NCBI GenBank assembly: GCA_017481725.1
Contig: JAFUOX010000022.1
Coordinates: forward strand, 4,668-68,667
Direction: 5' to 3'
DNA length: 64,000 bases
Origin: Kiritimatiellia bacterium
GTDB lineage: Bacteria; Verrucomicrobiota; Kiritimatiellia; RFP12; UBA3636
Under the pieces are notes generated by a model, which was not told where the DNA came from, ran no database searches, and worked only from the letters and a program-made list of their open reading frames with translations. Both the position numbers and the translations under genes were made by a program. Below, in pieces: positions 22,536 to 58,785 of the stretch. Position 1 is the first letter of the stretch, and each line of letters starts with the position of its first letter.

Positions 22536-22757
22536 ACCCTTTGCGTGCACTAGCACGCTCCAAAAGTGCTAAAAAGGGACGTAGAAACAGATGGTCGCTT
22601 GCGCTCTGGCCTTCGGCGAAACACGGAGAATAAAGAGTATCGGAGACACGGAGAGTTTTTGGGAAATATCGGAGAAAGGGGCTTCAGCCCCTTTGCGTGC
22701 ACTAGCACGCTCCAAAAGTGCATCCCGTGCTCCACGCATGCCCAACGCAATTTTCGC
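22536..22757 (+). repeat. GC-rich mosaic intergenic repeat, locus 1
   Basis: Contains the 25-nt core CTCTGGCCTTCGGCGAAACACGGAG (22603-22627) and the hairpin AAAGGGGC-TTCA-GCCCCTTT (22674-22693). A perfect 33-bp direct repeat occurs at 22536-22568 and 22688-22720. Confidence 0.85.
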
Positions 22758-29370: not shown

Positions 29371-29464
29371 ATTGACCTTTCAAAAATATGCCCTAACTCT
29401 TAAGTTTTTGTACTAATTTATAGTAACATATTTTTGAGTGTGTTTAAAGAGGAAATATGAAATC

Positions 29465-29712
29465 ACAGATGGCCGCTTGCGCTCTGGCCTTCGGCGAAAC
29501 ACGGAGCACACGTAGTGTGATTTTCCTGAGAACGGAGACACGGAGAGTTTTTGGAAATATCGTAGAAAGGGGCTTCAGCCCCTTTGACGTGCAATAGCAC
29601 GATCCTGCCTGCGTGGAGGCTACAAGGGTGGGGCTCTGCATTTCTGCGTCCCACCGTACATCACGTGCGTCACTTGTATCACGACCACAGCATCTCTGTG
29701 CTCTCTGCGGGG
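29465..29712 (+). repeat. GC-rich mosaic intergenic repeat, locus 2 (left edge of island)
   Basis: Core at 29482-29506, arm CACACGTAGTGTGATTTTCC, hairpin at 29566-29585, then GCGTCCCACCG and CATCACGTGCGTCAC modules shared with locus 3. Confidence 0.85.
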
Positions 29713-29780: not shown

Positions 29781-30632
29781 TTAATCTACAGGGATGACTT
29801 CTACATCAAATTCATCAATACCAAGTTTGTTTCGTTTATCCATAAATTTTCTTGGTAGTTTTATGCTGGTTAAACTTTTACAGTCATGAAACACATCGTC
29901 ACCGATAGTTGTTACACTATCTGGAATCACAATGCTGGTTAAACTCTTACACCTAAAGAATGCACTTTTGCCGATGGTTGTTACACTATCTAGAATTACA
30001 ATGCTGGTTAAACTCATACAACCAGAAAATGCATAGTCACCGATAGTTGTTACACTATCTGGAATCACAATGCTGGTTAAACTCGTACACCAAGAAAACG
30101 CACTTTTGCTGATGGTTGTTATACTTGATGGAATTACAATGCTGCTTAAACTAGAACAATGAGAAAATGCCCAGTCGCCGATGGTTGTTACACTATTTGG
30201 AATCACAATGCTGGTTAAATGACAACAGCTATAAAACGCATAGTCGCCGATGGTTGTTACACCTTCAGGAATTATAATGCTGCTTAAAATAAAACAATGA
30301 GAAAATGCGAAGTTGCCGATAGTTGTTACACTATCTGGAATTACAATGCTGGTTAAACCATTACAATCAGAAAACGCTCTGTCGCCTATAGTTGTAACCG
30401 GAAGATTCTTTAAATTAGAAGGTATTTTAACTTTTCCCGTTGCTTTTGCTTTTAATATTACAATACCATTACCATTGCGAGTATATTCCAATTTCATACC
30501 ATCTATCGTTTCTATATGGTTTTTGCCTTCAATAAGGTCTGAGTTTGAAACATTATAAGCACATGATGATAATGCGAAACCTACAAGTGCTAACGCCAAT
30601 AAAATTAAATATTTTTTCATATTATTCTCCAA
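29781..30632 (-). CDS. BspA-type leucine-rich-repeat lipoprotein
   Basis: Lipobox ALSSC and about eight 23-aa units of the form LTSIVIPDSVTTIGDYAFSGCxS. Confidence 0.8.
   Translation of the reverse strand: MENNMKKYLILLALALVGFALSSCAYNVSNSDLIEGKNHIETIDGMKLEYTRNGNGIVILKAKATGKVKIPSNLKNLPVTTIGDRAFSDCNGLTSIVIPDSVTTIGNFAFSHCFILSSIIIPEGVTTIGDYAFYSCCHLTSIVIPNSVTTIGDWAFSHCSSLSSIVIPSSITTISKSAFSWCTSLTSIVIPDSVTTIGDYAFSGCMSLTSIVILDSVTTIGKSAFFRCKSLTSIVIPDSVTTIGDDVFHDCKSLTSIKLPRKFMDKRNKLGIDEFDVEVIPVD
29849..30410 (-). repeat. 69-bp tandem coding repeats inside the LRR gene
   Basis: Units have a 69-nt period. An identical 48-mer GTCACCGATAGTTGTTACACTATCTGGAATCACAATGCTGGTTAAACT occurs at 29898-29945 and 30036-30083. 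Confidence 0.85.
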
Positions 30633-30882
30633 AAATAAGTATCAACCTTTTTCTATTTTTTTATTATTATATAAAAATTTAAAAATCTGTCAAATGAACA
30701 CAACCTTCATTCCATTAGGGTATTAGTATTCATGCATTGCATTTTTATTGAAACCACAAAATCCCTAAATGACACGAAAGTTGGAGCGATTTTGTAGAAT
30801 ATATCAAGTAGAATTTATAATCCACAGAATATAAAAACTTTTCGTGTGTTTCGTGGTTGCTAAAACCGCATCTCGCGTGCAC

Positions 30883-31108
30883 ACAGATTGGTCGCTTGTG
30901 CTTGAGCCTTTGGCGAAACACGGAGGACAGAGAGGAACGGAGGCACGGAGAGTTTTTGGAAAATATCGGGAAATGGGCTTCTGCCCCTTTGGCGTGCAGT
31001 AGCACGCTTCTGCCTGCGTGGAGGCTAAAAGTGCGAGGGTTGGGCTCCACGTTTCTGCGTCCCACCGGCGTCATGTGCGTCACATACACGCTTGTGTCTG
31101 AGACTAGG
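30883..31108 (+). repeat. GC-rich mosaic intergenic repeat, locus 3
   Basis: Diverged core CTTGAGCCTTTGGCGAAACACGGAG (30901-30925). The locus is colinear with locus 2 through GCGTCCCACCGGCGTCATGTGCGTCAC and abuts promoter-module copy 1. Confidence 0.8.
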
Positions 31109-31157
31109 TGCAAATAGCATCAGTTGTTTTATAAATTTACAAAATCATTGATTTTAC

Positions 31158-31186
31158 TTGCAATAATTATTGTAATTTATTATAAT
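31158..31186 (+). promoter_or_regulatory. shared promoter-operator module, copy 1 (module 31109-31202)
   Basis: TTGCAA - 17 nt - TATAAT. The perfect palindrome CAATAATTATTG (31161-31172) overlaps the -35 and spacer. The module lies upstream of the NERD gene. Confidence 0.6.
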
Positions 31187-31383
31187 TTTGGCGTTGTTTA
31201 ATTCGAGAGGATATTGATTTTTCGTGTCTGTATTAAAGATATAAATGCGGAAATGTGTCAAAATGTAAAGAAAATCCTTTATTATTGACAAATGTCCACA
31301 CCAAGGCGAAAACTGCAATGATTGCCAATATTAGTGTATCTTAATATTTTGAATAACTATTATTACGGAAAGAGTTTTTTACA

Positions 31384-32013
31384 ATGTTTGACTTGATTGC
31401 TTTCTTAATAATTATTTATGTTGTTGTTTTGATTTTAAAGTCTCCTACGATTAAAGGTAAATTTGGTGAGGGGCTAGTTTCGTTTTGTTTTTATAGGTAT
31501 TTAGATAAGAGTAAATATCGAGTTTTAAATAATGTAATGATTAGTGACAATATGGGAGGAACTACCCAAATAGATCATATTGTGCTATCAAAATATGGTA
31601 TATTTGTTGTTGAAACTAAAAACTATAAGGGATGGATTTATGGTGATGCTAAATCCAGAACTTGGACACAAGTAATTTATAGGAAGAAGACAAAATTCCA
31701 AAATCCTTTTTTTCAAAACTACAAACACATTCAATGTTTAGCTAATACAATATGTGTTCCTCAAGAGTGTCTCCATCAAATCGTATTTTTCGCAGGAGAG
31801 TGTGAATTAAAGACAAAAGATAGGATGCCAGAGACAACCTTCGAGCGTGGAAGTGTGATGTGTAATTATATAAAATCATTTACTCATGAATGTTTTGACT
31901 ATTTACAGGTTGAAGCAATAGAAAAGCGTATCTTAAATGCCCAGACAGAAAACACTTTCCTAAACAGGCATGCCCATAAGTCTTATGTTCGCAATATCGT
32001 CAAAAAGAGATAG
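31384..32013 (+). CDS. membrane-anchored NERD (nuclease-related) domain protein
   Basis: N-terminal TM helix, then GEGLVSF...TTQIDHIVLSKYGIFVVETKNYKGWIYG...WTQ, the canonical NERD core. Confidence 0.8.
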   Translation: MFDLIAFLIIIYVVVLILKSPTIKGKFGEGLVSFCFYRYLDKSKYRVLNNVMISDNMGGTTQIDHIVLSKYGIFVVETKNYKGWIYGDAKSRTWTQVIYRKKTKFQNPFFQNYKHIQCLANTICVPQECLHQIVFFAGECELKTKDRMPETTFERGSVMCNYIKSFTHECFDYLQVEAIEKRILNAQTENTFLNRHAHKSYVRNIVKKR

Positions 32014-32069
32014 TTTTGTGTAAATTCTTTGCGAAAATCTCAAATAAGCAACTTGGTCTTCTTTTTTCG

Positions 32070-32242
32070 CTAGTGCTCTGGCCTTCGGCGAAACGCGGAG
32101 CACACGTAGTGTGATTTTCCTGAGAACGGAGACGCGGAGGGGTGCTGGGCAATTGTTAATATTTGCTTGCACAATTCTCCCTTGTCCTCCGCAAAAATCA
32201 CACTATGTGTGTCCGTGTTAAGCGAAAGCAACGAGTGAGAAT
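32070..32242 (+). repeat. GC-rich mosaic repeat, locus 4 (long-hairpin variant)
   Basis: Core at 32076-32100. Arm 32094-32119 pairs with 32191-32217 at about 22 of 26 positions with one indel. An inner GCGGAGG/CCTCCGC pair is present. The locus abuts promoter-module copy 2. Confidence 0.85.
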
Positions 32243-32291
32243 TGCAAATAGCATTATTTGTTTTATAAATTCACAAAATTATTGATTTTAC

Positions 32292-32320
32292 TTGCAATAA
32301 TTATTGTAACTTATTATAAT
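32292..32320 (+). promoter_or_regulatory. shared promoter-operator module, copy 2 (module 32243-32395)
   Basis: TTGCAA - 17 nt - TATAAT with palindrome CAATAATTATTG at 32295-32306; upstream of tcmP and the radical-SAM gene. Confidence 0.6.
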
Positions 32321-32364
32321 TATGGCGTTGTTTAATATTAAAGTATTGAACGGTTCAGTTTTGC

Positions 32365-32393
32365 TTGTTAAATTGTTAGTAAAGTGGTAAAAT
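32365..32393 (+). promoter_or_regulatory. possible second (extended -10) promoter inside module copy 2
   Basis: TTGTTA - 17 nt (ending TGG) - TAAAAT. The same layout is conserved in copy 3. Confidence 0.35.
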
Positions 32394-32515
32394 GGAGGTG
32401 CTTGAAAAATGTAAATGTATAGTGTAATGTTTATTCGTAAAGGTTAGTTTTTTATGTTTGTTAAATAAAATGATTTTCATAATATTTAGTTTTATTTTTT
32501 TATATAGAGGGTTTT

Positions 32516-33652
32516 ATGGATTCAAAAACATTTCATGGTCAAGTATTTGATGATGCAACAAAAACAAAATTAGAGTTGTATCGTATTTATTTAAACGAGT
32601 GGCTTCCTGTTTTTTTGAACGGTGTAAATGCAAGTTATATTAAAAACATTAATATAGTTGATTTTTTCTGTGGTCCAGGCATGGATTCAGATGGTGTAGC
32701 TGGTAGCCCTTTAATAGCTCTAAATGCTGTTTCTGATGCATTAGAAAAGAATCGAGACCGATTGTCTCCTTATGTTCGTGTGAATCTTTATTTTAATGAT
32801 ATTGATCAGTCTGTTATTTCGAAGCTTAAAGATGTGCTTCTAGAGCAAAAATATGATGATAATAGGATTAGTATGTTTTGTTCAAGTAAACCATTTCATG
32901 AATGTTATAATAGTTTTGCTTCACTAAAAGATGGTATACTACGGCAGGATTGTTCTGCAAATTTTCTTTTTATTGACCAATTTGGGGTAAAAGAGGTTTC
33001 TCAAGAAATTTTTCACGATATGCAACAGATTAGTCGAACGGATTTTATGTTTTTTATTGCGGCATCTATTGTTAATAGAATGCATAATCAGCCAAGTATC
33101 AAGGATAAAATTCCAGTTTTGACTGAGAAAGAAACTCAACGCATAAATGCAAAAAATGTTGTTCGTATCCTTGCTGATGCTTATAAGCGATGGAAGATTG
33201 GTGGTAAAGATTTTTATTTAGGACAATTTGCACTACGTAAACCTAAAAGTCCAAATGTAAATGGATTGATTTTTGGGTCAAGTAATATATTAGGGTTAGA
33301 TAAGTTTTTGCAAGCAGCATGGAAAGTTGAACCAGTTTTTGGTGAGGCTAATTATTCTGTTGATGATAGTGATTTAAGACCAGAAGCACCTTTTTTGTTT
33401 GATGAATTAAATGTGCCCACTCGTACAAAACAATTTAATAAAAATTTAGAAGATGCAATTTGTACAAAACAAATAAAAACGAATCATGAAATTTACTATT
33501 TTTCTTTGCAACAAGGTTTTTTACCTAAACATGCGAGAGAGGTTGTAAAAGAATTACAAAAAAGGAAGGTTTTGCTTAATTCAAAAATTTCAATTTCAAA
33601 TGATTGTTTGAAAAGTTGTCCTATTGAATTAGAAATAAGAGGTGAAGTATGA
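32516..33652 (+). CDS. tcmP: three-Cys-motif partner protein TcmP-like (methyltransferase-like fold)
   Basis: N-terminal TKTKLELYRIYLNEW, SAM-motif-I-like VDFFCGPGMDSDG, then FNDID and FLFIDQFG. There is a 4-nt ATGA overlap with the next gene. Confidence 0.6.
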   Translation: MDSKTFHGQVFDDATKTKLELYRIYLNEWLPVFLNGVNASYIKNINIVDFFCGPGMDSDGVAGSPLIALNAVSDALEKNRDRLSPYVRVNLYFNDIDQSVISKLKDVLLEQKYDDNRISMFCSSKPFHECYNSFASLKDGILRQDCSANFLFIDQFGVKEVSQEIFHDMQQISRTDFMFFIAASIVNRMHNQPSIKDKIPVLTEKETQRINAKNVVRILADAYKRWKIGGKDFYLGQFALRKPKSPNVNGLIFGSSNILGLDKFLQAAWKVEPVFGEANYSVDDSDLRPEAPFLFDELNVPTRTKQFNKNLEDAICTKQIKTNHEIYYFSLQQGFLPKHAREVVKELQKRKVLLNSKISISNDCLKSCPIELEIRGEV

Positions 33653-34389
33653 ATATAATTTATGAACCTAAAGGACGGGCAAAAGAATATTCAGATTTGG
33701 CTTGTAATGTGTATATGGGGTGCCCTCATGGATGTACCTATTGTTTTGCACCTGGATGTATGCGAAAAAAGGCAGAGGAGTGGCATGGACAAACGTATAT
33801 TCGCTCAAAAGCGCTTGAATTATTTAGAAAGGATGCAAAAAAACTTTATGAAACACATGATAAACGACCAATTCTTTTTAGTTTTTTAAGTGATCCTTAT
33901 CAACCATTAGAGGGAGAACTGCATTTAACAAGACAATGCTTGCAGATTGTCAAAGAGTATGGTTTATCCAGCAAAATTTTAACAAAAGGTAAAGCGGAGT
34001 ATATTGAACCTGATTTAGAACTGATAAAGGCTGCTGGTACTGAGCTTGGAATAACGATTTCGTTTATGGATGATGATAAACGTCGTATTTGGGAGCCAGA
34101 AGCTGCACCTATTGAGGAAAGAGTAATAATTTTAAAAAAAGCCCATCAGATGGGTATATATACGTGGGTAAGCCTTGAACCAGTCATAGACCCCAAAGAG
34201 GCTTTACGAGTGATTAGTGAGCTTTCACAATTTGTTGATTATTGGAAAATAGGCAAACTTAATCATAATAAAGAGGTAGAGAAATCAGTCGATTGGTATG
34301 GTTTTCGTGTAAAAGCAGAGGAACTACTAGAAAAAATAGGTGCTAAATATTATATTAAGGAAGATTTACGCAAGGCAAAAAAAAATTAA
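33649..34389 (+). CDS. radical SAM protein with N-terminal Cx3Cx2C (SplB/DNA-photolyase-like)
   Basis: YMGCPHGCTYCFA lies 20 aa from the N-terminus; 246 aa, the size of a partial TIM barrel. Confidence 0.7.
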   Translation: MNIIYEPKGRAKEYSDLACNVYMGCPHGCTYCFAPGCMRKKAEEWHGQTYIRSKALELFRKDAKKLYETHDKRPILFSFLSDPYQPLEGELHLTRQCLQIVKEYGLSSKILTKGKAEYIEPDLELIKAAGTELGITISFMDDDKRRIWEPEAAPIEERVIILKKAHQMGIYTWVSLEPVIDPKEALRVISELSQFVDYWKIGKLNHNKEVEKSVDWYGFRVKAEELLEKIGAKYYIKEDLRKAKKN

Positions 34390-35298
34390 CAATATCTGAG
34401 AGACAAGAACATACCAGATTGTTTTAACCGAGCGCCAATAACCATCCTACGTCTACTTTCTACAGGGCTAGAGCCAGTGAAAAGCCCGTCTTCAATGTAT
34501 TTATCGTATTGCGTTTTGTCAACATTGTCCTTAAAGTATTTTAAGGTTTTACTCATGTCATTTCTCCTTGATTTCGGACATGCTTCTTCCGCTGCTTTTT
34601 TGTACGGGCCTGCTTCTGCCGAACGTGCGACTTCTTCAACAAGATCTGGTGTGTAACGCCCAATAAGCCCCATTTGTTCGTCCTACGGGTAATGTCCACA
34701 ACGATTGATTTTGTCGTAGTAGTATGTCCTTTTGATAGTGCCGACATGCCCGAACCTACTGATAATGTCTATGTTCTTAGTGCCTGCATTACGTTCTCCA
34801 GGTTTGGGCGTATACTTTACCTTTGTAGCTTCAGATTGAAGGATTGCTGAGAGAAGTTTACGACAAATTCCAGTAGCAGCTTTCTCCATAGCATGTTCAA
34901 GTTGCGAAGTGCATCCAATGCCGTCTTTCGCTATTGAATCTAATGCCGCATTTGCTATTGCTTCAAGTTCCGTACCGCCTTCAAAGCAGATTTGGTGTAC
35001 TTTTTTTTGAGGTCGATTCTGCAGCAAGAATTGACTCAGCATCACTGCGGGACAATTCCATGAGAAGCTCCTTTGCACGCTTACCACCGTTGACAGCCTC
35101 CTCAAACTCGGCAAGCCGTTCTTCTGGTATATGCATTGCGTGGTTTTTGCCATCCTGCCACCACTGCAGGTTATGATAGACGGCAATTGTACCGTCTGCA
35201 AGTTTTTTGCGGTTTTCACAAATTTTACCCTGAACTGCGAACGGAATGTTCTCTAGTTTCCCTAATATTTCTGTCCTGCGGCGTATTTCTGTTTTCAT
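34386..35298 (-). pseudogene. decayed ISKra4-like transposase
   Basis: The remnant spans three ORF pieces. There is a frameshift between 34981-35298 and 34683-35219, and an in-frame TAG at 34683-34685 (CGHYP*DEQMGLIG). The catalytic core is missing, but the C-terminal SSPVESRRRMVIGARLKQSGM signature is retained. Confidence 0.6.
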
Positions 35299-35402
35299 GT
35301 TCTATGGTATAATAAATAATATTACAAAAATCAAAGTTTTTTATAAAGTTTTTGCAGAAAAATCTCTTTGCACCCTTAAATTCACAAAATTATTGATTTT
35401 AC

Positions 35403-35431
35403 TTGTAATAATTATTGTAATTTATTATAAT
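35403..35431 (+). promoter_or_regulatory. shared promoter-operator module, copy 3 (module 35378-35505)
   Basis: TTGTAA - 17 nt - TATAAT with palindrome variant TAATAATTATTG. Upstream of the small ORF, NUDIX and helicase genes. Confidence 0.55.
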
Positions 35432-35474
35432 TTTGGCGTTGTTTAATATAAAATATTGAACGGTTCAGTTTTGC

Positions 35475-35503
35475 TTGTTTTGTCCCTAAAAAGATGGTAA
35501 AAT
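35475..35503 (+). promoter_or_regulatory. possible second (extended -10) promoter inside module copy 3
   Basis: TTGTTT - 17 nt (ending TGG) - TAAAAT, at a position equivalent to 32365-32393. Confidence 0.35.
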
Positions 35504-35948: not shown

Positions 35949-36344
35949 ATGTTTTATGGTAATGTGATAGAAGTGGTTGGAGCCATTATTAAGGATGGTG
36001 ATAAGTATCTTATCGGACAGCGGCCGGCGCATAAGTCGCAGGGTGGTTTGTGGGAGTTTATGGGCGGGAAGATCGAGCCTGGGGAAACTCCTGAAGAGGC
36101 GCTTAAGCGCGAGTGTCTTGAAGAGTTGGCGCTAGAAATTGAAAACGAGCGGATTATTGATTCTGTTGTGCATGAATATTCAGAAAAGACAATTCGTCTT
36201 ACATTAATTGAATGTAATCCGAAGAATGGATCAGTGCCGCAAGCATTGGAACATCAGGAGATTCGCTGGGTAACGGTATATCAAATGGGAATGCTTGAAT
36301 TTGCGCCGGCAGACCAGAAACTGATATATAAACTTTTTCGTTAA
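35949..36344 (+). CDS. MutT-type NUDIX (d)NTP pyrophosphohydrolase
   Basis: Nudix box GGLWEFMGGKIEPGETPEEALKRECLEELAL; 131 aa. Confidence 0.8.
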   Translation: MFYGNVIEVVGAIIKDGDKYLIGQRPAHKSQGGLWEFMGGKIEPGETPEEALKRECLEELALEIENERIIDSVVHEYSEKTIRLTLIECNPKNGSVPQALEHQEIRWVTVYQMGMLEFAPADQKLIYKLFR

Positions 36345-36386
36345 GTTAATGATGATGTTAATCGAAAACAAGGGAATCAGTAAGCG

Positions 36387-39170
36387 ATGGCAAATCAATT
36401 TTTGACTAATTACACAGAAGTGAAATTTCTTGATAAGCTGAAAGAAAACCTGCGCAGATGCAAGTCATTCTCATTTTCAGTCAGCTTTATAAAAAAGGCG
36501 GGCCTTGTTCTGCTGTTTAAGGATATTGAAGCTGCTGTTGAGCGTGGAGCGCAGGGACGTATTATCACCTCTACATATCAGAACTTTACTGATATTGAGT
36601 CGATAAAGAGCTTCTTTGCACTTCAATGCAAACATACTAATTTCGAGTGCCATCTTGATTACGAGTGCTTTCATGATAACAAGTATTCCACTCTTGGTTA
36701 TCATTCAAAAGGATACCTTTTTGAGTTCGACGATTTCTATGAGGTAATTGTAGGTTCTTCTAATATTACTCGTTACGCATTGCTCAAAAATATCGAGTGG
36801 GATGTAGTTGTTCGTGAAAGCAAGCCTGAAGTGTATAGTCAAGCATATGCAGAATTTGATGATAAATGGGAGGCAACGCATCTTCTGAATAGTGAAATTA
36901 TCAATCGGTATTCTAGTAAACTCAACTTTGCGATTGAACGTTGGGATATGGATTATGATCTTACCCCAAGCAGCATAAAGCCCAATTTTATGCAACGAAA
37001 GGCGCTGAAAGAACTGAACCGTTATAGAGCAATAGGCACAAATCGTGCTCTCGTTGTAGCGGCTGCGGGAAGTGGTAAGACTTATCTTGCCGCATTTGAT
37101 GCGCTCAATTTCGATCCGAAGCGACTTTTGTATATTGTTCACGAAGGATCAATTCTGAAAAAGTCACTTGAAACATTTTCGGAAGTATTCGGGAATCGTG
37201 TAACCTATGGTATTTTTAGCGGAGAACATAAAGAGATAGAAGCGAATTTTATATTCGCAACCAACATTACGATGTATAAATCTCTCGAGTTGTTTGCTAA
37301 GAATGAGTTTGACTATATTATTATAGACGAATGCCATCACGCAACCGCGGAAACATACAAGGAGATCATTGAATATTTTGAGCCTGAATTCTTGCTTGGA
37401 TTAACGGCTACGCCGGAACGTATGGACAATCAGGATGTGTTCGCTTTGTTCGACAAGAATGTGCCGTATGAGCTGCGTTTGCGCGATGCTATTATCAATG
37501 AACTTGTTGTGCCGTTCAAGTATTATGGTGTCCGAGACACACTTGTCGATTACGGACTCACTAAGAGTGAAGAACGCCGTATGATTGCACAGCTCGCAAA
37601 TGAGGAGCATGTCGAATTTATATCATCGCAAATCGAATCACATAGAGGTCAAGGGAAGTTGAAGGCCATTGCTTTCTGCCGTAATGTTACACACGCAAGA
37701 ATGATGAGCGAAGCAATGGGAGAACGATATAAAACTGCCTATTTGACAGGTAGAAACGATATCGGTGAGCGTATTCGCGCTTATAACGATTTGCAGAACG
37801 ATGATGCAGATCTCGAAATTCTGTTTACTGTTGATATTCTAAATGAAGGTGTTGATATTCCCGGCGTCAATATGGTGTTGTTTCTTCGTCCTACAGAATC
37901 CTCGACAATCTTCATTCAGCAGCTCGGTCGTGGTTTGCGTAAATACGATAATAAGCCACACGTAACTGTTCTTGATTTCATTGGTAATAGTTATAAAAGA
38001 AGTGTTCAAATTGCATTTGCATTAGGCAGCCTTTCGAGAAACTTAATTCTTGAAAAGAAGCTGATGCAACAGCTTGTTCGTGATGATTTTGAGGCACTTG
38101 GACTTAGCGAATATGGTGTTGAGATTAATGTTGATGACCTAAGTAAAGAAGAAATTATTAATTTTATAGAAAATGAAAACTTTAACAGCCTATCATATTT
38201 GAAACAGGACTATTTTAATTTCAAAAAGTACATTAATTCGGAGTTCTATCCGAAGCATATGGACTTTTTGAATAACGACTGCGCACCTGATTTGCTTAGA
38301 TTTATGAGTATCAAAATCGGTGGTAAAAAGAATTTTTCTTACTATAACTTCCTTCGTGGAATTGAAGAAGAAAATCTTCCGGCATTCTCGGAAAAACAAG
38401 TGTTGTTTGCAAATTATCTCTCTGCACAGCTTCCGCTTGTTAGAAAGCATGAGTATCTGATTTTTGATTGTCTGCTAAAGGGGATTGATGATATTGCAGA
38501 AATCAAAAAGTTTTTGCATCAGAATATTGGCGGGTGTAGAGAAGATGAAATTCAGCACGCTCTCGATTATATATATAAGAATGGCTATGTAAGTAAGGAA
38601 GAGGATAAGCTTAGGCTTTCCGTAGAGATTGACGAAGATTTCAAGGAGTACATTCTTGATTTATTGTCATATGGGTTGACCCGTTTTAGTATAGATTTTG
38701 GCGATGAATCTGATTTTAAGTTGTGGCAGAGTTATCGTATGGATCAGGTGCAGATGAAGTTTTTGCAGAATCCTCAGTATAATCAGGTCGGTACATATTA
38801 TTATGGTAAAGAAGTTGTGATTTTTGCATCTCTAAAAAAGGATTTGGCAGAGGAAGATAGGCTAAATTATAACGATAAGTTTTTAGAGCCTGATCTATTC
38901 CAGTGGGAGAGTATGGCCAACGTTTCAGCTGCCGATGTCGAGAAGCAACAAAAAAGCGAGCATGCTTATCTGTTTATCCGTAAGGTGTCTAACGAAAACG
39001 GTATCGTTTTGCCCTTTATTTATGTTGGGAAAGGAAAGATGACCAATCCTCGTAAACAGGTGAAGTCCGATAAAGCAAAAGGCAAGGATGTTATAACTTA
39101 TCTTTACGATATAAAAATGGAGAACGAATTGCCAGAATACTTACAGTATGATTTTGGATTGAGTAAATGA
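36387..39170 (+). CDS. PLD(HKD)-nuclease-like + SF2 DEAD/DEAH helicase + DUF3427-like C-terminal domain protein
   Basis: HSKGYLF...VGSSNIT (HxK...GSxN), Walker A AAAGSGKT, IIIDECHH, motif VI QQLGRGLR. The C-terminal segment FQWES...YLFIRKV...PFIYVGKG resembles DUF3427 as I recall it. Confidence 0.85.
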   Translation: MANQFLTNYTEVKFLDKLKENLRRCKSFSFSVSFIKKAGLVLLFKDIEAAVERGAQGRIITSTYQNFTDIESIKSFFALQCKHTNFECHLDYECFHDNKYSTLGYHSKGYLFEFDDFYEVIVGSSNITRYALLKNIEWDVVVRESKPEVYSQAYAEFDDKWEATHLLNSEIINRYSSKLNFAIERWDMDYDLTPSSIKPNFMQRKALKELNRYRAIGTNRALVVAAAGSGKTYLAAFDALNFDPKRLLYIVHEGSILKKSLETFSEVFGNRVTYGIFSGEHKEIEANFIFATNITMYKSLELFAKNEFDYIIIDECHHATAETYKEIIEYFEPEFLLGLTATPERMDNQDVFALFDKNVPYELRLRDAIINELVVPFKYYGVRDTLVDYGLTKSEERRMIAQLANEEHVEFISSQIESHRGQGKLKAIAFCRNVTHARMMSEAMGERYKTAYLTGRNDIGERIRAYNDLQNDDADLEILFTVDILNEGVDIPGVNMVLFLRPTESSTIFIQQLGRGLRKYDNKPHVTVLDFIGNSYKRSVQIAFALGSLSRNLILEKKLMQQLVRDDFEALGLSEYGVEINVDDLSKEEIINFIENENFNSLSYLKQDYFNFKKYINSEFYPKHMDFLNNDCAPDLLRFMSIKIGGKKNFSYYNFLRGIEEENLPAFSEKQVLFANYLSAQLPLVRKHEYLIFDCLLKGIDDIAEIKKFLHQNIGGCREDEIQHALDYIYKNGYVSKEEDKLRLSVEIDEDFKEYILDLLSYGLTRFSIDFGDESDFKLWQSYRMDQVQMKFLQNPQYNQVGTYYYGKEVVIFASLKKDLAEEDRLNYNDKFLEPDLFQWESMANVSAADVEKQQKSEHAYLFIRKVSNENGIVLPFIYVGKGKMTNPRKQVKSDKAKGKDVITYLYDIKMENELPEYLQYDFGLSK

Positions 39171-39540: not shown

Positions 39541-39712
39541 ATAACAGAGTAATGCTAAAAGCCAGCTTTCGGCTACTATTTGCAAAATCCAACTAATTCT
39601 GCCAAATAACCTCGCACTTTTAGCCACCACGCTAGCCTGAACTACTAGTCATGCTTTGCAAAAAGCAAACATTTATGGTTTAATATGTAACAATGAGATG
39701 AGGAACTATTAT

Positions 39713-40165
39713 ATGAATGCTGAATTATGCAATATGTGCATGGTAATGGACAATGAAGGTCGCGTGTTAGTGCAGGAGCGTTTACCCAAGCCAACTAACC
39801 CTTGGTGTGGTTTGACCTTTCCTGGAGGACATTTGGAGCATGGAGAATCAATTGTTGAATCAACAATTAGAGAGATGAATGAAGAAACAGGTTTGATAGT
39901 TTCAAATTTACAAAATTGCGGCTTTGTTCAGTGGTATAACCCAGCAAAAGATCTTCAATATATTGTTTTTCTATTTAAGACAAATACCTATACTGGAACA
40001 CTCAAGGATTCTGCCGAAGGCAATGTCCGTTGGATGACGCTAGATGAAATGCGTAGCGGCAACCTCGCACCAAATATGGATCGCTATATCGATGTCATAC
40101 TTAATGATAACCTACCTCAAGTCTATGGAGTTGTTGGGTCTGGTCTCACCTCATGGGAAGGCTAA
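39713..40165 (+). CDS. NUDIX hydrolase
   Basis: Nudix box PGGHLEHGESIVESTIREMNEETGL. ATG 39713 is preferred; the ORF opens at 39656. Confidence 0.75.
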   Translation: MNAELCNMCMVMDNEGRVLVQERLPKPTNPWCGLTFPGGHLEHGESIVESTIREMNEETGLIVSNLQNCGFVQWYNPAKDLQYIVFLFKTNTYTGTLKDSAEGNVRWMTLDEMRSGNLAPNMDRYIDVILNDNLPQVYGVVGSGLTSWEG

Positions 40166-40213: not shown

Positions 40214-40440
40214 CTCTCCGTGTTTCGCCGAAGGCTAGAAGCGAGAGCGTTTAAATCGTTTCACTCATTGCTTACGCTCAACACGGACACACGAAGTGTG
40301 ATTTTCACGGAGGTAATGAAGAAAAGTGCAAGCAATAATTACCCTAGAAAACTCTCCGCGTCTCCGATCCTCTCTGTCCTCCGTGTTTCGCCGAAGGCCA
40401 GCACGCGAGTGCGATGCACGTGATGCTGGTGGCATCACGC
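40214..40440 (-). repeat. GC-rich mosaic repeat, locus 5 (reverse orientation; right edge of island)
   Basis: Reverse-complement cores lie at 40216-40240 and 40379-40403. Positions 40261-40313 are the reverse complement of the locus-4 right arm. Confidence 0.85.
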
Positions 40441-48752: not shown

Positions 48753-48989
48753 CCTTTGCGTCTCTGCGTCCCTTCTTCGCACTTCTAGCCATCACGTACA
48801 TCAGCTCCGCGTCGCAGCGCCCCTTTTACGCACTTTTGAAGCGTGCTAGTGCAAGCAAAGCGACTGAAAGTCGCTTCTCCAAACTCTTCCTACACGCTTG
48901 CGAGATGCACGTGACGCCGGTGGGACGCAGAGACGCGGAGGCCGAAAAAACTAGCGGAATAAGGTTTATACTGTTTCTGTTATTGCTTT

Positions 48990-58444: not shown

Positions 58445-58785
58445 CGGATGAGTGGTGGTCGCTGACGCTCTAGCCTTCGGCGAAACACGGAGAAAAAAGA
58501 GGTAAGGAGGCACGGAGGGGTTGCTGGGGGTATTGTTCCTTGCACAATTCTTCCTTGTCCTCCGCAAAAATCACACTATGTGTGTCCGTGTTAGGCGAAA
58601 GCAATAAGTGCGAAGAAGGGACGCAGAGACGCAGAGGACGCAGGGCTTGCGTGGTGGCTTATATGGAGGTGTCGATAATAACACTACCGCTTGTTGTTTC
58701 CTTGGTTATTGCTCTATCTTTCAGAAGCAATAAGGAAACTGCCAAGCGCTAGTGTGTTCGACCACAATGAAGGCAGAGCCGCTAA
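58445..58785 (+). repeat. GC-rich mosaic repeat, locus 6
   Basis: Core CTCTAGCCTTCGGCGAAACACGGAG (58468-58492) and the same long-hairpin layout as locus 4. It also carries GGGACGCAGAGACGCAGAGGACGCAG and CCTTGGTTATTGC...GCAATAAGG...GCCAAGCGCTAGTGTG (58700-58756). Confidence 0.85.

Follow-up and report, generated by a model that had tools for sequence, protein, structure and literature searches.

A stretch of 64,000 nucleotides from the metagenome-assembled genome of a Kiritimatiellia bacterium (GenBank assembly GCA_017481725.1, contig JAFUOX010000022.1, positions 4,668 to 68,667; in the following called the window) carries two overlapping genes at positions 32516 to 34389. The first open reading frame (ORF1) encodes a TcmP-family methyltransferase-like protein and the second (ORF2) a small radical S-adenosylmethionine (radical-SAM) protein. 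In the original prediction, made from the letters of the DNA, this cassette was interpreted as a two-gene nucleic-acid modification or restriction-type system within a defence-like island, an interpretation which is partly supported by the computational analysis described here. Those of the proposed refuting conditions that lend themselves to computation all turned out in its favour. The TcmP name of the first gene product and the listing of such pairs as candidate systems PDC-M30/M41 are already known. New is the radical-SAM partner with a CX3CX2C motif beside a PDC-M30A-type TcmP, a combination missed by the existing models for the B component. The features of the cassette are:

32516-33652, forward strand: ORF1 (TcmP), 378 amino acids (aa), ATG start
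ORF1 residues ~1-271: class-I SAM-methyltransferase-like domain with motif I DFFCGPGMD (residues 49-57), N94-D95 and D154-Q-F-G157
33386-33583, forward strand: winged helix-turn-helix (wHTH) of ORF1, residues 291-356, Pfam PF22560 GMT-wHTH
33649-34389, forward strand: ORF2 (radical-SAM), 246 aa, ATG start
33721-33744, forward strand: CPHGCTYC, the CX3CX2C [4Fe-4S]/SAM motif, ORF2 residues 25-32 with C25/C29/C32
33640-33652, forward strand: coupling junction with the Shine-Dalgarno (SD) sequence AGGTGA (33640-33645) and an ATGA overlap (33649-33652)
32506-32511, forward strand: SD-like AGAGGG, 4 nucleotides (nt) 5' of the ORF1 ATG, from reading of the sequence

At the junction the stop codon TGA of ORF1 and the start codon ATG of ORF2 are combined in one tetranucleotide. 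This overlap and all peptide motifs quoted for the two proteins were recovered, among them KLELYRIYL (residues 18-26) and VDFFCGPGMDSDG (residues 48-60) of ORF1.

The two proteins

ORF1 is a TcmP protein, as had been proposed. It reaches 122.9 bits with the NCBIfam model TIGR04474 (cut-off 53), covering profile positions 2-262 of 263, and a protein identical to it is already named TcmP by NCBI. In PADLOC it is matched over its full length by PDLC04568 PDC-M30A (E 1.2e-97). The wHTH scores 36.4 bits with PF22560 (cut-off 27, E 7.2e-9). In an alignment of 40 TcmP sequences (A2) motif I (DFFxGPGxD) and D154-Q-x-G157 are invariant, and N94-(D/E) at the end of strand 2 is conserved; in ORF1 N94-D95 likewise sits at the end of beta-2. 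Furthermore, the residues H7, K18, Y25 and W29 of an N-terminal helix are conserved. The AlphaFold2 (AF2) model of ORF1 (pLDDT 88.3) is folded like a class-I methyltransferase. Its closest folds in the PDB are those of histamine N-methyltransferase, RlmJ and Trm1, at TMq values of only 0.35-0.38, and therefore no specific methyltransferase (MTase) subfamily can be assigned. A Pfam scan of ORF1 yielded no MTase family, and no recognisable DNA MTase family model matches TcmP. Sequence searches of the PDB with ORF1 and with profiles from A2 and from the ORF2 alignment A1 gave chance-level matches only, TcmP has no family in PHROGs, and a fold search with TcmP against viral structures (BFVD) found generic methyltransferases only.

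The counterpart of D154-Q-F-G157 is DPFG in a divergent TcmP (locus L028) and DLDA(Y/F)G in a class of smaller proteins, the mini-MTases described below. The TcmP motif D-(Q/P)-(F/Y)-G resembles the DPFG motif of Trm1. The sole model match for a Trm1-type likeness is a weak, sub-threshold one between Pfam TRM and a phage mini-MTase (E 0.003).

ORF2 is a radical-SAM protein of a family related to spore photoproduct lyase (SPL, SplB) and DUF5131. It passes the Pfam model Radical_SAM (PF04055; 39.2 bits, cut-off 29.5). C19, C25, C29, C32 and C37 are invariant in the close ORF2 subfamily (A1). The family is strongly conserved, with 55-67% identity across phyla, and comprises, at 50% identity, 883 representatives at E<=1e-30 and 3592 at E<=1e-10. 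The AF2 model (pLDDT 88.9) consists of alternating beta/alpha elements. Its best solved fold is SPL (4fhc; E 1.7e-7, TMq 0.68), which agrees with the earlier description of the protein as SplB-like. Nearly all of the top 50 PDB matches are radical-SAM enzymes, and RlmN and viperins (TMq 0.54-0.56) are among the fold matches.

ORF2 and SplB share the radical-SAM partial TIM barrel, the substrate of SplB is DNA, and SPL (5-3) and DUF5131 (5-2) belong to one megacluster of RadicalSAM.org (PMC9477430). Unlike SplB, to which it is 13% identical, ORF2 has 246 aa instead of ~340 aa, an obligate methyltransferase-like partner and non-sporulating anaerobic hosts. The SPL model TIGR04070 does not match ORF2 at E<=0.01, and the protein stays below the curated cut-offs of PA0069 (75.1 vs 360 bits), Rv2578c (52.6 vs 430) and mobile-pair-B (52.6 vs 410). 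Relatives carry the JGI name 'DNA repair photolyase', and weak matches to PADLOC pVip models (E ~1e-3) occur among the family members. In PHROGs ORF2 matches only phrog_13321 of unknown function. ORF2 has no nucleic-acid-binding domain of its own.

Conservation of the pair and its two partner flavours

A scan for loci of ORF2-type radical-SAM proteins (rSAM), with one genome per species, yielded 80 loci in the PVC group, Desulfobacterota, Bacteroidota, Spirochaetota, Acidobacteriota, Chloroflexota and one metagenome-assembled genome (MAG) of Bathyarchaeota. Close rSAMs (>=52% identity) are found at 60 distinct loci, 58 of them evaluable. A TcmP-type gene lies directly upstream on the same strand in 51; the nine loci that deviate include two at contig ends. 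The pair is thus conserved elsewhere as co-oriented, abutting neighbours. The pairing is not due to chance, since it recurs across many phyla. Two subtypes of TcmP occupy the upstream position, one M30A-like as in the window and one M41A-like; the latter proteins (280-354 aa) pass TIGR04474 with 79-96 bits and match PADLOC PDC-M41A. Pairwise identities of TcmP and rSAM are correlated (r = 0.82 for 28 complete pairs), and therefore the two genes are passed on as a unit. With a mean identity of 48% against 62% for rSAM, TcmP is the faster-diverging protein, as is expected for a specificity subunit. More distant rSAMs (39-50% identity) are preceded by the mini-MTase, a methyltransferase-like protein of ~200 aa with VLDxFAGxG and DLDA(Y/F)G and without a wHTH. 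The rSAM core thus recurs with three classes of methyltransferase-like partner.

ORF2 had been taken for the three-cysteine protein from which TcmP has its name. This did not hold. The eponymous partner is DUF5131/Gp37-Gp68 (PF07505) with a CX6CX2C motif, represented in PADLOC by PDC-M30B/M41B, and ORF2 belongs to a different family with remote homology to it. TcmP was defined by TIGRFAMs through adjacency to its partner, and PADLOC lists PDC-M30 and PDC-M41 as defence candidates. ORF2 scores 16.1 bits with PF07505 (cut-off 28.9), and a PADLOC search with ORF2 gave no match even at E<=1, PDC-M30B and PDC-M41B included. In Pseudodesulfovibrio (L086) and on a metagenomic contig (L087), TcmPs belonging to the subfamily of ORF1 are followed by DUF5131 proteins of 241-244 aa, and the TcmP partner on Leptospira biflexa p74 (L256) is annotated as 'phage Gp37/Gp68 family protein'. 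The DUF5131 partners carry GCTKISPGCANCY (CX6CX2C) and match both PDC-M30B and PDC-M41B at ~1e-120.

In an alignment of ORF2 with these partners (A3), C25/C29/C32 align with the CX6CX2C cysteines, and the motifs E-(Y/W), N, GC...C..C, SD(P/L), LTK and SLEP are common to both; the cysteine spacing of ORF2 is three residues shorter and the identity amounts to 15-18%. ORF2 is therefore a remote DUF5131 homologue in the same gene position, and no named model covers it. Pairs of TcmP with DUF5131 resemble the cassette in the family of the first gene, in the gene order (TcmP first, followed on the same strand by an abutting or overlapping gene for a ~245-aa partner), in the motif-level homology of the partners and in their defence or mobile genetic element contexts. 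They differ in the partner, which has CX3CX2C and passes Radical_SAM but not DUF5131 in the cassette, and has CX6CX2C in PDC-M30/M41.

JGI metagenomes hold at least 474 stretches with TcmP. The 80 metagenomic loci whose TcmP comes closest to that of the window have rSAM as the downstream partner in 35 cases and DUF5131 in 31; seven have neither and seven stop at a contig end. One of the two partners is thus directly downstream in 66 of 73 evaluable loci, and both together in none. The type of partner follows TcmP subclades, and the TcmPs nearest to that of the window are paired with rSAM. Because the partners are mutually exclusive and no B model matches ORF2, the cassette represents a second flavour of the TcmP/PDC-M30 pair. 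Since PDC-M30B/M41B do not match ORF2, current defence finders would report only an orphan A gene.

The CX3CX2C flavour was encountered solely in MAGs of anoxic origin, namely gut, rumen, sediment and bog (L006-L063). The DUF5131 flavour was also found in aerobes, for example Leptospira, Rhodococcus, Mycobacterium and Sinorhizobium (L086, L256, plasmid hits H32-H36). The oxygen tolerance of the cluster may have driven the swap of partners.

Genomic surroundings in phages, in other bacteria and in the window

In IMG/VR the rSAM family occurs in 165 matching stretches. Among 81 viral rSAM loci a mini-MTase lies within 2.5 kb in 38, mostly as the adjacent gene, a ParB-like gene is present in 45, and the two occur together in 32. 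The gene two positions downstream of rSAM often encodes the terminase large subunit. In Dulem virus 36 the annotated gene order is ParB, mini-MTase, rSAM. The cultured Parabacteroides phage PDS1 (gp34) and Bacteroides phage BKO1-3 carry a relative as well. Fusion proteins were found in a library of representatives at 50% identity: in P0253 and P0286 a middle domain separates rSAM from a ParB/Spo0J-like C-terminus (E 6.8e-10 with 1vz0 for P0253), and P0360 combines rSAM with a prim-pol domain similar to pRN1 ORF904, a DnaG zinc domain and a P-loop region. Both kinds of fusion tie the rSAM enzyme to DNA binding and replication. It was shown experimentally that a ParB-like protein activates a phage post-replicative DNA base-modifying enzyme, the 5mYOX T-dioxygenase, on double-stranded DNA (PMC13229309). 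The phage relatives of ORF2 resemble this system in their position beside ParB-like and methyltransferase-like genes near terminase, and some of them in the fusion to a ParB domain. In contrast, the enzyme there is an Fe/2-oxoglutarate dioxygenase instead of a radical-SAM protein with an MTase-fold protein, and in the bacterial cassette a fused wHTH takes the place of the ParB-like partner.

In bacterial genomes the pair is not embedded in a conserved metabolic operon; its neighbours are heterogeneous and many of them are restriction-modification (R-M) or defence genes. No third gene is conserved beside the pair among the 96 nearest neighbours, and no endonuclease is consistently encoded with it, nuclease or helicase neighbours being found in a minority of loci. 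A census of neighbours by family counts includes Type IIG enzymes (Eco57I and MmeI domains in 5-6), other DNA methylases, DrmMI-like proteins, pAgo, SLFN/AlbA_2 and AAA_15, and also the housekeeping genes for TrpA, MetRS and GyrB. At least eight loci (L009, L020, L021, L045, L046, L053, L054, L059) have Type ISP/IIG or helicase-type genes adjoining the pair, at distances from an overlap to a few hundred nt. These are a Type ISP/IIG enzyme, an SNF2 helicase (with PLD or NOV_C) together with an Eco57I-type methylase, or an MmeI-family enzyme. The large gene is directly upstream on the same strand in six of the eight, and directly downstream in L020 and L054. An overlap of tcmP with a type ISP gene is found on Leptospira biflexa p74. 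In Sinorhizobium meliloti TcmP and the Hna defence helicase are part of one putative transcriptional unit, and both are ~2-fold up in nolR+ (PMC12445080). In some genomes the pair may form a three- or four-gene super-system with Type ISP/IIG or SNF2-helicase/Eco57I genes.

With classical R-M systems the cassette has in common a fast-diverging, SAM-dependent methyltransferase-like specificity protein and the location in defence islands, often beside Type IIG/ISP genes. Unlike them it has no endonuclease, and the radical-SAM enzyme is obligatory.

On human-gut contigs (L001-L004) an M41A-type TcmP and rSAM head an operon which further encodes a 450-aa protein with no Pfam match, a PDDEXK_1 nuclease and DUF932; one variant has a small helix-turn-helix gene upstream. 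This layout resembles the early region of a mobile element or prophage.

In the window the cassette is part of a defence-like island, as described earlier, with glycoside-hydrolase and leucine-rich repeat (LRR) genes to its left and TsaD to its right. The further features of the island, together with a repeat found across the window, are:

31384-32013, forward strand: NERD-domain protein with N-terminal hydrophobic segment (Pfam NERD, E 3.9e-32), its own unit behind copy 1 of the promoter repeat
32243-32393, forward strand: promoter-like AT-rich repeat, copy of the cassette (direct-repeat families D2/D7, sigma-70 scan, blastn against the window)
34386-35298, reverse strand: transposase-like remnants, frameshifted and overlapping ORFs, convergent to the cassette, with a sub-threshold DUF6788 match only
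35949-36344, forward strand: MutT-like Nudix gene (Pfam NUDIX; PADLOC PDC-S07, 3.5e-42)
36387-39170, forward strand: PLD nuclease + SF2 helicase + DUF3427 (Pfam PLDc_2, ResIII, Helicase_C, DUF3427; PADLOC mREase_IV, 4.8e-101)
22587-22713, 29464-29673, 30882-31083, 32064-32238, 40216-40409 (inverted), 48904-48943 (inverted) and 58456-58614: copies of a GC-rich repeat

The NERD neighbour, the Nudix protein matching PDC-S07 and the PLD-helicase give the island its defence-like character. The PLD-helicase could be specified further: by its domains and the type IV model it is predicted to be a SauUSI-like modification-dependent restriction enzyme. The Nudix gene lies 43 nt upstream of it, and a second Nudix gene is located at 39656-40165; Nudix protein and modification-dependent restriction enzyme may form a functional pair. 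The insertion sequence debris named among the neighbours is weakly supported: by the sub-threshold DUF6788 match and what we take to be an ISKra4-like C-terminal motif, 34386-35298 is probably a decayed transposase, inserted between the cassette and the Nudix/PLD-helicase unit. A linkage of the TcmP pair to NERD, Nudix or PLD-helicase genes in other genomes was considered and rejected, as 85 loci gave one weak NERD match. The LRR gene on the left (29781-30632, reverse strand) encodes a BspA-type protein with seven copies of a 69-nt (23-aa) tandem unit at 29794-30464.

The statement that the cassette has its own copy of a shared promoter proved correct. A direct repeat of 94 nt with TTGCAA, a spacer of 17 and TATAAT is found at 31109-31202, 32243-32336 and 35354-35447; copies 2 and 3 extend to ~150 nt (32243-32393; 35354-35503). 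The identity of the core among the three copies is 94-96%. They precede the NERD gene (1), the TcmP-rSAM pair (2) and the Nudix + PLD-helicase unit at 35949-39170 (3). In the copy of the cassette the -35 element is located at 32292-32297 and the -10 element at 32315-32320. All three copies are inside the island, and no fourth was detected in the 64-kb window; the exact 40-nt core has no match in JGI metagenomes. A near-palindrome, TTGCAATAAT/TATTGTAA, covers the -35 element and the spacer in every copy and might serve as a common operator or as a handle for recombination when cassettes are exchanged.

The GC content of ORF1 (31.1%) and ORF2 (35.5%) is below that of the window (38.7%), so that the low GC reported for the cassette is real; its contrast with the neighbours is modest, the NERD gene having 31.9%.

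The GC-rich repeat is dispersed, intergenic and REP/MITE-like, with copies of ~130-200 nt that are 75-94% identical, and gives rise to spurious ORFs of 60-120 aa. It brackets the island, yet is also found elsewhere in the window. A role of the flanking copies as cassette-specific attC-like sites was rejected because the copies are scattered across the window. Rfam and tRNA scans of the window gave no matches.

Possible function of the cassette

The combination of two SAM enzymes, their obligate pairing, a wHTH or ParB module, phage packaging and replication contexts and R-M neighbours is best fitted by a two-step modification of DNA. We tentatively favour, at somewhat less than an even chance, the view that the two enzymes of the cassette form an autonomous, horizontally mobile module for the covalent modification of a base in a nucleic acid, DNA being the most probable one. 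The modification half of the original prediction is backed by the phage ParB/terminase modules and the fusions, and is still an interpretation; the restriction-type half is not directly supported, since a conserved nuclease is missing from the cassette.

For the module we infer a DNA substrate, a physical complex, the order of the steps, the chemistry and a protective role. TcmP, with its SAM-binding class-I fold and D-(Q/P)-x-G, would be the subunit for targeting and for the first step, and its winged-helix domain would bind the polymer. The rSAM protein would be the conserved catalytic partner, generating a 5'-deoxyadenosyl radical by means of [4Fe-4S] and SAM and then, as the second step, acting on what TcmP presents, be it the base or the methyl group. 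An element carrying the module would have its DNA protected or labelled by the mark so produced. In phages, ParB-like protein, mini-methyltransferase and rSAM would modify the genome before packaging; in bacteria the module is found in defence islands, often adjoining Type ISP/IIG or helicase-nuclease genes. A precedent for this logic is wybutosine synthesis, in which the class-I SAM methyltransferase Trm5 and then the radical-SAM enzyme TYW1 act on the same guanine. The likeness is one of logic only: Trm5 and TYW1 act on tRNA and are housekeeping enzymes, in contrast to the DNA-centred, mobile context of the cassette, and homology of the cassette to either was not detectable.

Several points weigh against a DNA-modifying module. 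In the literature searched, no modified base, complex or phage phenotype is reported for any TcmP pair, and full-text literature on TcmP, DUF5131, PDC-M30/M41 or GMT-wHTH yielded annotation-level mentions and no functional study. The nearest solved folds of TcmP, RlmJ and Trm1, are RNA methyltransferases, at the weak TMq values given above. TcmP is rare in IMG/VR (6 loci) and absent from the phage GenBank set, and about half of the viral rSAM loci have no MTase partner recognisable by the hidden Markov models used. As no nuclease is conserved with the pair, the self-mark would be without a cognate restriction partner in most loci, and the restriction enzyme nearby in the window is of the modification-dependent type. 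Finally, the enrichment in defence islands was judged qualitatively, without a background control.

Among the alternatives, an anti-phage effector fares best, although we consider it unlikely. Here the wHTH of TcmP would sense invading DNA or an infection cue and rSAM would damage phage DNA by crosslink, adduct or scission, blocking replication or packaging with no need for a nuclease. The absence of a conserved nuclease would fit, as would the listing of TcmP + DUF5131 as PDC-M30 and PDC-M41, the defence islands in the window and elsewhere, the fast divergence of TcmP and the action of SPL-type scaffolds on DNA lesions. However, phages themselves carry rSAM with mini-MTase and ParB-like genes by terminase, a placement more in keeping with the modification of the phage's own genome than with a weapon; a component for self-protection is not evident, and no phenotype has been published.

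A more doubtful proposal is a pair for the modification of tRNA or rRNA, with TcmP acting as a base methyltransferase of the RlmJ/Trm1 kind and rSAM building further on the methylated base in the manner of TYW1; tRNA might thereby be shielded from anticodon nucleases. RlmJ and Trm1 among the top solved folds of TcmP, RlmN among those of rSAM, the weak TRM match of the phage mini-MTase and the Trm5/TYW1 precedent speak for it. The fold matches are weak and generic, however, and the contexts are DNA-centred, with ParB-like genes, terminase, the ParB and prim-pol fusions and R-M neighbours. In addition, the patchy distribution, suggestive of horizontal gene transfer, and the fast divergence of TcmP are atypical for enzymes acting on conserved RNA sites.

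It is quite improbable that the pair produces a viperin-like antiviral metabolite, with rSAM converting a nucleotide or small molecule and TcmP methylating the product or precursor to a chain terminator or toxin. The weak pVip matches, the viperins among the fold matches and the Nudix gene in the island speak for it. However, the pVip matches are far below significance, SPL is a better fold match than the viperins, and the Nudix gene is unlinked to the pair elsewhere; the wHTH of TcmP, the ParB and prim-pol fusions and the terminase-adjacent phage modules point to a polymer as substrate. Least probable of all is a DNA-repair lyase in the sense of SplB or 'DNA repair photolyase', reversing a specific lesion recognised by TcmP: the SPL fold, the JGI label and weak matches to COG1533-type families (PA0069, Rv2578c) are set against scores far under every curated cut-off, the lack of a TIGR04070 match, non-sporulating anaerobic hosts of gut and sediment, and an obligate methyltransferase-like partner, a defence, mobile element and phage context and a fast partner divergence that are unexpected for housekeeping repair.

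The two-step DNA modification favoured here can be extended, as a speculation which we regard as rather doubtful, to a widespread and so far unrecognised pathway of post-replicative DNA hypermodification. TcmP or mini-MTase, an SPL/DUF5131-type rSAM and a wHTH or ParB module would create a new base by methyl transfer and subsequent radical chemistry at the same site, with CX3CX2C and CX6CX2C proteins as interchangeable cores. Phages would use it to evade restriction, and in bacteria it would provide the self-mark of R-M-like modules.

TcmP pairs are common and already flagged as defence candidates. A canonical rSAM partner, missed by current defence-finder and annotation models, is found with about half of the closest TcmP relatives. 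The compact two-gene construct of 1.9 kb makes the hypothesis of DNA modification by a methyltransferase and a radical-SAM enzyme testable. If it is true, the biology of DNA modification would gain a new enzymatic route and probably also a new base, and two catalogued candidate systems would be accounted for.

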